From a virus (Duplodnaviria; Heunggongvirae; Uroviricota; Caudoviricetes), in the IMG/VR virus record IMGVR_UViG_2667527959_000006, positions 1 to 11,176 of that record: a stretch of DNA of 11,176 bases. One strand, given 5' to 3'. Positions within the stretch are counted from its first letter, which is position 1. Every line of letters begins with the position of its first letter. Shown in pieces: positions 1,016 through 7,208 of this stretch. The translations under genes were made by a program, and so were the position numbers. The notes under the pieces are model-generated. The model did no database searches. It was not told where the DNA came from and worked only from the letters and a program-made list of their open reading frames with translations.

Positions 1016-1324
1016 TTAATATACGATCTGGTCTACATGATTACCAAAATCATCGTCGTCGTCCTCATCGCCACCATCTACAGATGGCCAATCAACAAAC
1101 CAGCCAGCGTAAAGATGCAGCGTTCGGAGAACATCACTTGCGGGAGCATCAAGGGTGTTAACGAATCCCATATAGCTATTGGGATTTGCCCCATCTATGG
1201 CTTCAGTGATCATGTCCTCGGTAATGTCACCGGAGATAATGCTTAAACGCCCGGAAACTTCTTCATTATCATCAAATTCGATAATGGCATCTCCGCCTAA
1301 TGGCGCTGCGATTTTAATCTGCAT
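1016..1324 (-). CDS. Small highly acidic protein (102 aa), function unknown; last gene of the dar operon
   Basis: ATG at 1324-1322 preceded by AAGGAG 8 nt upstream; the start overlaps the ddrB stop by 11 nt, suggesting translational coupling. By manual count about 23 Asp/Glu versus 3 Lys/Arg, with a DGGDEDDDDDF tract. It may correspond to the small ORF that follows ddrB on P1 maps; I do not assign a name. Confidence 0.7.
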   Translation of the reverse strand: MQIKIAAPLGGDAIIEFDDNEEVSGRLSIISGDITEDMITEAIDGANPNSYMGFVNTLDAPASDVLRTLHLYAGWFVDWPSVDGGDEDDDDDFGNHVDQIVY

Positions 1325-4301
1325 TATTTAGCTCCTTTGCCACACCTAATAACAGTTCCAGCAATCCGTCACCATTCATCAGTGATGCGGCAGCGGCCTC
1401 TTTGTCATGATACAACTGAAGAGCCATAGAGAATACTTCCGTTGCTGACGTTTTGGAAATAGTCGGTGATTTCTGCCGAATTTTCCCGGTGTTACTTACT
1501 GAGGCTGGCGGGTATACCTTCGCCATATAAATATTACTCAATCGAGATCTGAAGCACCATTCAGGCTTGCCACGCCCACCGATATTAACGAAAGATGGCT
1601 TATCCCCTTCAACATTGGCCTTCAGAAATGACCGGGCTTTCTCTAACAAACCAGGGTTACTGTACTCAAGATGATGACCCAGCTCGTGCCACAGTGCACT
1701 TGCATTTTCATCGTTCAAATTGACAGCAACAACACCATTAAGATTTGCATATGCCCTTCCCTGGTGGTGAACCACCTTTGATAAGGTCGAAATTTTACCG
1801 CCGGTCAGGCGATAAATATCAGCAAGTTCCTTGCGCAGGTCTATCCCACCATTCTGTCCAGCGCGAGCTTCTTCCACTTCTTCCGTGATAAAAGAGTCGG
1901 CCCACTCAAGAGCTTTTTCTTCAGATACGGATGAGTTTGCGATCGCACTGTTCATGGCAGATAACACTTTCTCGTGGACCGAACCCATACTTCGCTGATT
2001 CATTTGCCAGCGTGTCTGCGGGTTATATGAGAATCGCTTAAGTAGTTGGTCAAGCTGCTCAAGTTCTTCTTCACTGACATACTTTTTAGCCTCACCAATA
2101 ATGCCAGGGAGAATATTGCCGTTAGGATTAAACGCTCGCGAAAGGAAGAGTTTCAGCGCCCCTATGCCCTCCGATGCTTCAATATCACCAATAACCCGGT
2201 TAACAATGGCCGCACTCTTCGGATTAGCATCCGCCAACGCTCTGGCTACGATTTGCAGGGACGATACGACCTCACGCTGCATATCAGTCCTGATCTCATC
2301 AATAAACTCTGGCGTTATGCCGTGCTCTTTAAGGATATCCCGGCCTTCCGCCGTTACCCCATCGATATCACCGACATGTTTATTAACACGGCTTTGCAAT
2401 GCCTTAAATGCCTTCAGAATTCCACGGGCATCATCCGCTTTACTAACGGCCTTCCTGAATGCTGGCAAGAAGTCTGAGTTAACCTCATTTTGTTGATCGG
2501 CCCACTGAATGGAGGCTTCTTTCATCTCGTCCAGAGTCAGATCACCCAACGCGGTATGGTCTGTGAATATGAGCGACAACCTCTGAACCATTTCTGCCAA
2601 TGGTGATGCCGAATGCGCCGCGCTAAGGAATGCTTTCACCCTGGTTGGGCGAATGGAAAACCAGTCAATAGCTGGTGGCATATCTCCGTTTTTTATCGCC
2701 TGCGCTATCTCGTCAAAGCCATCGCGCCCAAGGGAGGATGCGTGATTTAACAAGCCGCGAAGTAACGAATTGCTGATACCGAATAATCGGCACCATTTTT
2801 TCACGTCGGCAACAGGCATTCGAACAAAATGCGCAAGCACTTGTACAAGCTGTTCATCCTGGGGATCTGTGCGGGAAAGCAGCCTGATCAGATGAATAAT
2901 GTCTTTGATGCCGGATGCCCGATGTAATAGCAAACTGGTATACGGAGCAACACCGTTGTAACTACCGCCGGAAACGGACTCGAAAAGACCGCCGGATATC
3001 CCTTGCATGCCTTCGTATTCCAGTTCCTGAGACACCTGGCGAAGGATATCCTGTAACGACACATCGCCGCCGCCAAACATATCCCCCAGCGCCTGGCCCT
3101 GGTGCTGTAACTCATCATTGATACGTTGAGCCATCAACTTAAAGGCGGTGGCCATACGCTTCGCGCTACGGTTATTCGCGACGATGAACAACGCGAGTGC
3201 TTTCACTTCCGGGGCCGTTTCGCTGAACATATCCCCCTGAGCAATAACATCGGTAATATGCTGGCCTGACTCCTTCGATTGCCTTACCAGGTCTACCGCA
3301 TCTTTCAATGCCGCCAGCGCCTTTTTATCGAGGCTATCCGCTGTCTCAATGCCATCAACAATAGTTGTCACAGCCTGCTTGTGCGCTTCTCCTGATAAAG
3401 CCTGCATCTGGACAAAATCATTGGCTGCCGCATTAAGCGCCGTCAGAACATTACGCATATCCGGATCAGGTTCTTCTGCAACCATCCTTACCAGGCGCGC
3501 ATCCTTATATGCCTTGGCAAAGATCGCGTTTTGTATACGGTCTACAAGTTGCCGTGTTGGTCGCCCATCTTCCGTTACAAGGCCAGCAGCCTGTGTGGCA
3601 CCAACTTGCGTCATGAATCCGCGAATAAACGCGTCATTACTGCGGCTAAGCAGATCTCCGCTTTCTGACGGGTTAAACAACGCCATCATCGCCGGTGTTA
3701 TGCTGTCGGCATCAACAAAAGCCTTTTCACTGGCTGCCATTTCCTGGAGATCAGAAATATTTGAGTCCTTGGCAAACTGAACACGGTCAACCTTCGTTAA
3801 CCGGCGGCGCACCAGTACCGGAGCCGTCATTGATTCAACCTTTTCAGGCCGTATGCCGAATTCGGTCGCATGTTCAATCAGGTACTCCCGATACCGATCC
3901 GCATTACCGTCCTGATAGGCTTTAATGATCCCCATGGTCCGCCCATTACCTGACTCAACGGCATTGTCCTCACCAATTATTGGCGCGCCATGGCTGGATA
4001 AACCGGAATCGGTAAGCTGGGCAGGACGCAAATCCTTGGATATCTGGTTGACCTGAAGAAGGCTGGATGCGCGGGTCCGGTCGCGCGGCTGAAGTTCCTG
4101 GGGATAGTCTGGATTAATTTTCCCATCCAGAGTATTGGATACCAAAAGAACTGAGGCATCGACGATATCAAACGCTGTTTTTACCTCGTCTCCCTTCGCT
4201 GTCACCACATACGAAACCCGCCCATAATCGGGCAGGTTCTTTAGCAGCTCGATCAGCGTTTCTATGCTGGTGGCCATTACCACCTGATCGCTTAAGCTCA
4301 T
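1314..4301 (-). CDS. ddrB: DdrB-like large dar-operon protein (995 aa) with a C-terminal HExxH motif
   Basis: Uninterrupted 995-codon ORF immediately downstream of the ddrA-like gene, matching the P1 order darA-ddrA-ddrB and the about 108 kDa size I recall. Contains WHELGHHLEY (residues about 871-880, nt 1671-1688). Confidence 0.75.
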   Translation of the reverse strand: MSLSDQVVMATSIETLIELLKNLPDYGRVSYVVTAKGDEVKTAFDIVDASVLLVSNTLDGKINPDYPQELQPRDRTRASSLLQVNQISKDLRPAQLTDSGLSSHGAPIIGEDNAVESGNGRTMGIIKAYQDGNADRYREYLIEHATEFGIRPEKVESMTAPVLVRRRLTKVDRVQFAKDSNISDLQEMAASEKAFVDADSITPAMMALFNPSESGDLLSRSNDAFIRGFMTQVGATQAAGLVTEDGRPTRQLVDRIQNAIFAKAYKDARLVRMVAEEPDPDMRNVLTALNAAANDFVQMQALSGEAHKQAVTTIVDGIETADSLDKKALAALKDAVDLVRQSKESGQHITDVIAQGDMFSETAPEVKALALFIVANNRSAKRMATAFKLMAQRINDELQHQGQALGDMFGGGDVSLQDILRQVSQELEYEGMQGISGGLFESVSGGSYNGVAPYTSLLLHRASGIKDIIHLIRLLSRTDPQDEQLVQVLAHFVRMPVADVKKWCRLFGISNSLLRGLLNHASSLGRDGFDEIAQAIKNGDMPPAIDWFSIRPTRVKAFLSAAHSASPLAEMVQRLSLIFTDHTALGDLTLDEMKEASIQWADQQNEVNSDFLPAFRKAVSKADDARGILKAFKALQSRVNKHVGDIDGVTAEGRDILKEHGITPEFIDEIRTDMQREVVSSLQIVARALADANPKSAAIVNRVIGDIEASEGIGALKLFLSRAFNPNGNILPGIIGEAKKYVSEEELEQLDQLLKRFSYNPQTRWQMNQRSMGSVHEKVLSAMNSAIANSSVSEEKALEWADSFITEEVEEARAGQNGGIDLRKELADIYRLTGGKISTLSKVVHHQGRAYANLNGVVAVNLNDENASALWHELGHHLEYSNPGLLEKARSFLKANVEGDKPSFVNIGGRGKPEWCFRSRLSNIYMAKVYPPASVSNTGKIRQKSPTISKTSATEVFSMALQLYHDKEAAAASLMNGDGLLELLLGVAKELNNAD

Positions 4302-4313
4302 CCCTGTTACGCC

Positions 4314-6595: not shown

Positions 6596-6596
6596 G

Positions 6597-7208
6597 TTAA
6601 TTTCCTGCTTTCAGTTGCTTAAGACGACGTTTGAGTTCGCCATTCCGTGCCTTTTCGTTATTGAGTCGGCCCGTCTCCTTATCCAGCTTCGCCCGCAAAT
6701 CAGTGATCTGCTGTTGATTGAAAGACACCGAATTCTGCGCGGACTTATAAGCGGCAACCACCTGAGCATTCCGCTGTTTTGCTTCTTGCAGGCGCTGAAA
6801 GTTGGATTTAACTGCCGGTTTCTTGTCTACCGGATTGGCAACACGCTTCGCTTTGGCGATCAGTGATTTCTGGAATTTTGCGGAGTTTTTGCGGGCCGCC
6901 TGTCCCATGACGGTACCAAGCGTCTTGATATCCGGCGACTGAGCGTTAGGAATAGCTTTTCCATTCAGTTTCACAGACGATATATCGCCAGTATCGTTTA
7001 CCTGTATGGCAAGAATTTGTCCGTCGTTAAGAACCAGCTTTGCGGTTTTAACTTTAACGCCATCTTTCGTTGTTGCGCGGTTGCTGGAGTCAACCTCAAT
7101 TACCGTAACCCCGGTTTTATTGATCGCCGCGATAAGGGATTTCAGCCCCTTTTCATTAACCTGGTCAAAATCGACCGTTGCATACTTATTTTTCGTCATC
7201 TGACACAT
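6597..7208 (-). CDS. hdf: Hdf-like protein (203 aa by ORF track; the second in-frame ATG at 7199 has better RBS spacing)
   Basis: Shares LNDGQ...RKNSAKFQK with DarA residues about 138-208, fitting an Hdf/DarA relationship. The stop is 1 nt before the darA start. Beginning at 7208 overlaps lydB by 23 nt; AGGA lies 8 nt upstream of the ATG at 7199. Confidence 0.7.
   Translation of the reverse strand: MCQMTKNKYATVDFDQVNEKGLKSLIAAINKTGVTVIEVDSSNRATTKDGVKVKTAKLVLNDGQILAIQVNDTGDISSVKLNGKAIPNAQSPDIKTLGTVMGQAARKNSAKFQKSLIAKAKRVANPVDKKPAVKSNFQRLQEAKQRNAQVVAAYKSAQNSVSFNQQQITDLRAKLDKETGRLNNEKARNGELKRRLKQLKAGN

Follow-up and report, generated by a model that had tools for sequence, protein, structure and literature searches.

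Which system is encoded by the block of five co-directional genes at positions 1016–7208 of a stretch of viral DNA that is assigned to the Caudoviricetes (IMG/VR record IMGVR_UViG_2667527959_000006, positions 1 to 11,176; this whole stretch of 11,176 nucleotides (nt) is referred to as the window)? An initial annotation, made without database searches, had recognized in this block the darA operon of phage P1 by gene order and size, and had therefore regarded it as a counter-defence locus. The comparison with P1 bears this out. It is virtually certain that the stretch is the darA operon of a P1-like (Punavirus) Escherichia coli phage-plasmid, and that this operon is intact and under purifying selection, and none of the evidence gathered contradicts the identification. 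The counter-defence function is supported by the identity of the genes with those of the P1 Dar (defence against restriction) proteins, and the locus is already known, being an ordinary copy of a well-studied counter-defence operon.

Among phage genomes, P1 is the best megablast match of the window (98.6% nucleotide identity), and local blastn yields one collinear block that covers window positions 917–11119 (10,203 nt, 98.6% identity, 140 mismatches, one gap) and corresponds to 24.2–34.3 kb of the P1 genome (NC_005856). Over this block, the P1 annotation reads hxr, ddrB (with the internal antisense frame iddB), ddrA, darA, hdf, lydB, lydA, the promoter LPdar, lydC, cin, cixL, and the invertible C segment with Sv′ and U′. 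The window contains seven tightly coupled open reading frames (ORFs) on the minus strand, the last five of which make up the 1016–7208 range, and the lengths of all seven are exactly those of the P1 counterparts. LydA is identical to its P1 homolog, even at the nucleotide level, and the number of amino acid differences is two for Hdf, two for DdrA, three for LydB, five for Hxr, ten for DarA and 13 for DdrB. As the high identity extends over the complete block, and as every ORF has the length of its P1 counterpart, the similarity to P1, as judged from these alignments, is far above chance.

The protein searches against P1 Hdf, DarA, DdrA and DdrB that the initial annotation had suggested thus identified all four, and the 639- and 995-residue proteins, on whose resemblance to P1 DarA and DdrB its reading depended, clearly belong to the expected families. 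DarA (4676–6595, minus strand; 639 residues), an internal head protein, contains the Pfam domains DarA_N (residues 66–204, 1.4e-42) and DarA_C (residues 411–472, 3.5e-16), aligns with PDB 9ukm_I over residues 1–639, and reaches 1091.6 bits with the NCBIfam equivalog NF052326 (anti_RE_DarA, “antirestriction phage head protein DarA”), i.e. a full-length match far above the curated cutoff of 350. Its parts are an N-terminal propeptide, the hexon- and DNA-binding DarA_N domain, a long coiled helix, a penton-binding domain, and a flexible C-terminal part with DarA_C. Hdf (6597–7208, minus strand; 203 residues), the second internal head protein, is basic (isoelectric point (pI) 10.2) and consists of a DarA_N-like domain (Pfam DarA_N at residues 13–109, 1.1e-21) and a basic C-terminal helix, through which it pairs up with DarA at the wall of the capsid; in addition to its identity to P1 Hdf, it has a match to the Hdf-like antirestriction family of PHROGs and matches PDB 9ukm_H over residues 1–203 (4e-122). 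DdrA (4314–4679, minus strand; 121 residues) is a small acidic virion protein (pI 4.07) that is identified by its identity to P1 DdrA, by its position between darA and ddrB, and by phrog_1855 (“DdrA-like anti-restriction protein”, 9.8e-58); no Pfam family, even in a permissive scan, and no NCBIfam family was found for it. DdrB (1314–4301, minus strand; 995 residues), a polyvalent virion protein, has the N-terminal DdrB-type ParB/Srx domain (Pfam ddrB-ParB, PF18763, residues 36–167, 5.2e-39), behind which come a long, helical central portion and, at the C-terminus, an HExxH region (HELGH, residues 872–876).

The genes lie on one strand, as described by the initial annotation, and its gaps of 1 nt between hdf and darA (TAA C ATG) and of 12 nt between ddrA and ddrB can be read from the sequence, which also confirms the tight packing. 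It had, however, assumed several ATGA overlaps, and there is only one of these in the range, at the darA/ddrA junction; at the ddrB/hxr junction, hxr overlaps the stop codon of ddrB by 11 nt (ATGCAGATTAA), which is not of the ATGA type. A second ATGA overlap of 4 nt lies outside, between lydA and lydB, and lydB in turn overlaps hdf by 23 nt, which makes lydA and lydB translationally coupled to one another and to hdf. Therefore, the description of the operon as complete holds for the dar cistrons but fails for the transcription unit at its 5′ side, as the P1 unit is LPdar-lydA-lydB-hdf-darA-ddrA-ddrB-hxr, and LPdar, lydA and lydB (7186–8002) lie outside the 1016–7208 range. The first cistron is lydA (7626–7955, minus strand; 109 residues, GTG start), which encodes a holin (Pfam Phage_holin_3_3, 5e-07), and the second is lydB (7186–7629, minus strand; 147 residues), which encodes the LydA antagonist (Pfam LydB, 6e-103). 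Upstream of lydA, the Lpa-dependent late promoter LPdar (7984–8002, minus strand) is found with its −22 element AAGTTACTT and its −10 element TACCAT, which exactly matches the 19-nt element of NC_005856, and the spacer between lydC and lydA shows no difference from P1 over its whole length. The window thus has the complete P1-type arrangement, with lydA-lydB-hdf-darA-ddrA-ddrB-hxr tightly coupled on one strand downstream of LPdar.

At the other end, 3′ of hxr, a hairpin at 916–949 (minus strand) with a 12-bp GC-rich stem (core GGCTTGCTT/AAGCAAGCC) that is followed by ATTTCT probably serves as intrinsic terminator of the operon, and a 50-nt stretch comprising it is predicted to fold with −18.2 kcal/mol. 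P1 homology ends directly beyond the hairpin, at 917, and as it resumes at this position, the hairpin is common to P1. A consensus scan for sigma-70 promoters and terminators gave no excess over shuffled sequences: LPdar was overlooked because it is not a sigma-70 −35/−10 promoter, and the hairpin because its predicted loop is at the 8-nt limit of the scan and its tail has only four T residues. Scanning the complete window for Rfam families and tRNAs gave no hits.

One detail of the P1 annotation may need correction. In P1, the Hdf start is the ATG that corresponds to 7208, resulting in a protein of 203 residues that begins with MCQMTKNK, and PDB 9UKM uses this 203-residue sequence. In Cronobacter phage JK004 this codon is ACG, and only the second hdf ATG (7199) is conserved, together with an AGGA 8 nt upstream. 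As the PGAP annotation of plasmid pATCC10729_02 also calls an Hdf of 200 residues, translation probably begins at the 7199 ATG, and the annotated start would be three codons too early.

How would such an operon protect a phage? For the element in the window, packaging and cis-protection are inferred from P1 and rest on 98–99% protein identity; gene identity, gene order, promoter, domain content and selection were established directly. According to published work on P1, LPdar would drive a single late-lytic transcript lydA-lydB-hdf-darA-ddrA-ddrB-hxr, with LydA and LydB setting the timing of lysis. Hdf and DarA would be the first to enter the procapsid, favouring the large T=13 head and holding the packaged DNA. 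Cryo-electron microscopy resolved, on the inner face of the capsid, 55 pairs of DarA and Hdf that sit at penton-hexon junctions, where the two proteins form a parallel helix bundle and their positively charged N-terminal domains touch the DNA (Zheng et al. 2026, PMC12810830). The prohead protease likely trims about 69 N-terminal residues of DarA, which is consistent with the absence of residues 1–69 from the structure (PMC12810830), and an independent preprint arrives at the same picture, with DarA-Hdf pairs being absent from T=7 small heads (bioRxiv 10.1101/2025.11.26.689930). The DarA/Hdf platform would then recruit DdrA, next DdrB, and then DarB and Ulx, which are both encoded elsewhere; the P1 virion proteome includes Ulx, DarB, DdrB, DdrA, DarA and Hdf (PMC9024508), and the loss of Hdf or DarA keeps out all other Dar proteins and shifts the heads from large to small (PMC12810830). 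At infection, as shown for P1 (PMC9024508, PMC12810830, PMC12707154), the Dar proteins would exit the head along with the DNA and would guard this DNA alone, in cis, against type I restriction. DarA-Hdf pairs are gone from heads after DNA ejection (PMC12810830). DarA, Hdf and DdrA would cover EcoA/StySA, and DarB, Ulx and DdrB would cover EcoB/EcoK. In P1, protection from EcoA/StySA requires DarA, and protection from EcoB/EcoK requires Ulx, DarB and DdrB (PMC12810830), while DdrA is required against EcoA-type restriction and is listed as a virion protein (PMC9024508). The statement of the initial annotation that the mechanisms of these proteins are poorly defined is therefore outdated for Hdf, and likewise for DarA, since the cryo-electron microscopy study (PMC12810830), but it still holds for DdrA and DdrB.

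With regard to DdrB, its C-terminus has been assigned as a zincin-like metallopeptidase, which was proposed to cut DdrB to the packaged 76-kDa form (Iyer et al., PMC5512222). In homologs with identities as low as 43%, neither the HELGH motif nor E887 and E955 vary, and by transfer from P1, DdrB of the window is predicted to process itself through the C-terminal HExxH domain. Within ddrB, the antisense frame that corresponds to P1 iddB (3349–3780, plus strand) has 143 codons here and 132 in P1, which means that its stop codon is not conserved, and its product is rich in Ala, Ser, Arg and Cys, a composition that is typical of an antisense frame. Probably, iddB is not a real gene.

What alternatives exist for the reading of the locus as an intact anti-restriction operon? 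The operon could in principle be a decaying remnant in a defective plasmid-prophage that no longer makes functional Dar proteins. Insertion sequence (IS) elements crowd its 3′ flank (an IS1 end at 1–59 and an IS1-family element at about 153–915), and many relatives have an IS200/IS605 element within the operon, between ddrA and ddrB. Here, however, this junction is uninterrupted, the IS insertion in the flank is located downstream of the operon's terminator hairpin, the seven ORFs all have their full length and contain neither frameshifts nor premature stops, LPdar is identical to that of P1, and the ratio of nonsynonymous to synonymous substitution rates (dN/dS) relative to P1 is 0.13 for hdf, darA, ddrA and ddrB taken together, all of which makes decay hardly credible. 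The module is, moreover, retained in JK004 (MZ188976.1, genes 115–121; all annotated as “hypothetical”), which resembles the window in the order of the seven genes, the ddrB/hxr overlap and the HExxH motif. As JK004 retains this seven-gene architecture including the overlap, the module can be regarded as conserved and selected. JK004 differs from the window by protein identities of only 79% for Hdf, 75% for DdrA, 69% for DarA, 60% for DdrB and 44% for Hxr; it represents a more distant branch that helps to judge which residues matter. A second alternative concerns the primary function: the locus could be a capsid-morphogenesis module, with DarA and Hdf acting as auxiliary scaffold, head-size determinants and DNA anchor, and anti-restriction being secondary to the recruitment of cargo that includes DarB. 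Deletion of darA or hdf reduces the proportion of large heads from about 80% to about 15% (PMC12810830; bioRxiv 10.1101/2025.11.26.689930), mature heads retain the DarA-Hdf pairs at their penton-hexon junctions, small heads lack these pairs, and restriction phenotypes are confounded, as either deletion removes all other Dar proteins (PMC12707154). On the other hand, restriction phenotypes are documented for DdrA and DdrB, for which no role in head size has been reported (PMC9024508), and hdf, darA, ddrA and ddrB are all dispensable for plaque formation on a non-restricting host (published CRISPR interference table). As both roles are documented for the same proteins, this view is compatible with the anti-restriction reading; that morphogenesis is primary we consider possible, albeit unlikely. 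A few points weigh against the reading of the locus as an intact anti-restriction operon. Even for P1, it is unproven how Dar proteins block type I enzymes (PMC12707154). As defined by experiment, the Dar system depends on darB and ulx as well (PMC12810830); both genes are outside the window (in P1, they are located to the left of IS1 at a distance of over 8 kb), which bears on the intactness of the whole Dar system of the element. Finally, the C-terminus of DdrB gave no relevant match in a permissive Pfam scan, a PDB phmmer search or a PDB profile search, and its AlphaFold2 model (pLDDT confidence score 42.6, on a shallow alignment of nine homologs) was too poor for a fold search.

The remaining alternative relates to the last cistron, hxr (1016–1324, minus strand; 102 residues). 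The initial annotation had noted an acidic terminal ORF, and this ORF is the annotated P1 gene hxr, whose product is very acidic indeed (pI 4.05; 23 Asp and Glu residues versus 3 Lys and Arg residues), has a poly-Asp tail, and belongs to phrog_2292 (“unknown function”). Could Hxr be an Xre-type helix-turn-helix (HTH) repressor that acts on the operon or on neighbouring genes? This idea goes back to the legacy P1 annotation only, which lists a “possible repressor” and Xre homolog with 28% identity over residues 23–80, and from there many records have taken over the label “putative repressor Hxr” without support. The acidity is unlike a DNA-binding repressor, no HTH or other Pfam family was detected at E ≤ 5 in ten family members, and there is no NCBIfam match. 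The AlphaFold2 model, albeit of low confidence (pLDDT 61.5), has a strand-strand-strand-helix-helix-strand arrangement with a disordered poly-Asp tail and not the five-helix Xre fold, and a Foldseek search against the PDB returned noise only (best E 0.41), without any HTH protein. Also the translational overlap with ddrB in both P1 and JK004 and the tiny size of the family argue against a repressor: a word-indexed search found 14 matches, all P1-like, and an exhaustive HMMER search found 16 among 1.84 billion representatives. We therefore regard the repressor function as highly improbable, and the assignment as Xre homolog was rejected, given that neither an HTH domain nor an all-helical fold was found, Pfam, NCBIfam and PDB gave no match, and PHROGs assigns no function.

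What else could Hxr do? All members of its family are proteins of about 100 residues of the same type, plus one tandem duplicate, and no informative fusion or family was found among the 16 HMMER representatives. The family has the core GD...NS.MG.VN...VLR.L...GW.V.WP.V.G and an acidic tail that ends with I/V-V-N/Y. Hxr is the fastest-evolving cistron, with a dN/dS of 0.54 relative to P1 and the above-mentioned 44% identity to JK004 (60–79% for the Dar proteins), and its position and its overlap with ddrB are the same in both phages. This conserved translational coupling to ddrB makes a role inside the Dar module plausible. More specifically, we tentatively suggest, with considerable doubt, that Hxr is not a repressor but an overlooked seventh component of the Dar module. 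It may be a DNA-mimic-like inhibitor of an enzyme of restriction or defence, a chaperone or neutralizer for the basic DNA-binding surfaces of Hdf and DarA, or a protein that partners or inhibits the DdrB peptidase. Hxr is not in the published P1 virion proteome (PMC9024508), which is uninformative because it has a single tryptic peptide of 7–30 residues and the study required two.

The 3′ flank departs from P1. Positions 1–59 are the terminal inverted repeat end of the resident IS1 of P1 (100% identical). The IS1-family element at about 153–915 is complete but divergent, about 763 bp long, and has imperfect ends (GGTGATGC.../...CACTACC) that were read by eye; an inverted-repeat search for these ends found nothing. 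Its InsA-like frame lacks an obvious standard start codon, and an InsB-like ORF lies at 207–530; the element is common on E. coli plasmids and adjoins the dar terminator hairpin, and P1 isaB is absent. On the other side of the operon, positions 8023–11176 contain the P1 holin gene lydC, the invertase gene cin (one amino acid change, E145K), cixL, and the invertible C segment with Sv′ and U′, with Sv′ adjoining cin as in the P1 reference sequence. P1 homology stops at 11119, and the final 57 bases match phage RCS47 instead, which points to another U/S tail-fibre cassette beyond this end and thereby to host-range mosaicism.

Of 5,426 complete E. coli genomes, 490 (about 9%) carry the dar segment of 6.2 kb, 428 of these 490 with at least 80% coverage, and 510 of its 523 places in these genomes are on plasmids of about 90–100 kb. 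At least 49 PLSDB plasmids carry at least 80% of the whole window. As the segment is so frequent on E. coli plasmids, the element can be regarded as a routine P1-like phage-plasmid. Among the many relatives in which an IS200/IS605-type TnpB/InsQ element interrupts the ddrA-ddrB region are plasmid pATCC10729_02, E. albertii plasmids and the phages RCS47, SJ46 and vB_EcoM-813R1. The insertion, checked in pATCC10729_02 only, falls there exactly into the ddrA-ddrB gap and splits the operon; the corresponding gap (4302–4313) is intact in the window. In most RefSeq and PLSDB plasmid and genome records, the dar genes appear only as “hypothetical protein (x6)”; the names DarA and “DarA-related protein” are given in recent PGAP runs alone. 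As most copies carry the hypothetical label, a well-characterized counter-defence operon is largely invisible in annotations. The locus itself adds little, as it repeats almost unchanged a phage counter-defence system that is among the oldest known, and its practical value lies in annotation, which concerns the “hypothetical” dar genes, the unsupported repressor label of Hxr, and the Hdf start that is probably three codons early. The remaining biology is narrow and comprises the block of type I enzymes by Dar proteins, the self-processing of DdrB by its HExxH domain, and the roles of DdrA and Hxr, all of which are general to P1 and not special to the window.

How does the operon compare with known systems? 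In the P1 head complex of DarA and Hdf (PDB 9UKM/9VZ0, PMC12810830), chains I and H align end to end with DarA and Hdf of the window. None of the ten DarA substitutions falls into the capsid-contact loops 102–116, 321–326 and 342–346 (loops as defined in PMC12810830), whereas the substitutions A319V and D333G are within the penton-binding domain. The polyvalent proteins described by Iyer et al. (2017, PMC5512222) share with DdrB the combination of a DdrB-type ParB domain and a C-terminal HExxH region, and the DarA-N domain that defines this family is present in DarA and Hdf; unlike in polyvalent proteins, the P1-type domains are spread over several small or medium-sized proteins of one operon and are not joined in one giant polypeptide. 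The closest relative is the P1 darA operon itself (NC_005856.1, 24244–31230), with the same genes, order, lengths, overlaps and promoter, 98.6% nucleotide identity and 95–100% protein identity; the window differs from it by 140 substitutions in 10.2 kb and by an IS1-family element in the 3′ flank where P1 has isaB, and a functional difference is not predicted. A functional parallel exists in phage T4, whose internal protein I (IPI*) is packaged into the head, co-injected, and shields the incoming genome from restriction. Like IPI* and other capsid-packaged anti-restriction proteins, the Dar proteins reside in the head, enter with the DNA and protect the genome. However, there is no sequence relationship between the two systems, and while IPI* inhibits a type IV enzyme in trans, Dar proteins act only in cis on the DNA with which they were packaged (PMC12707154).

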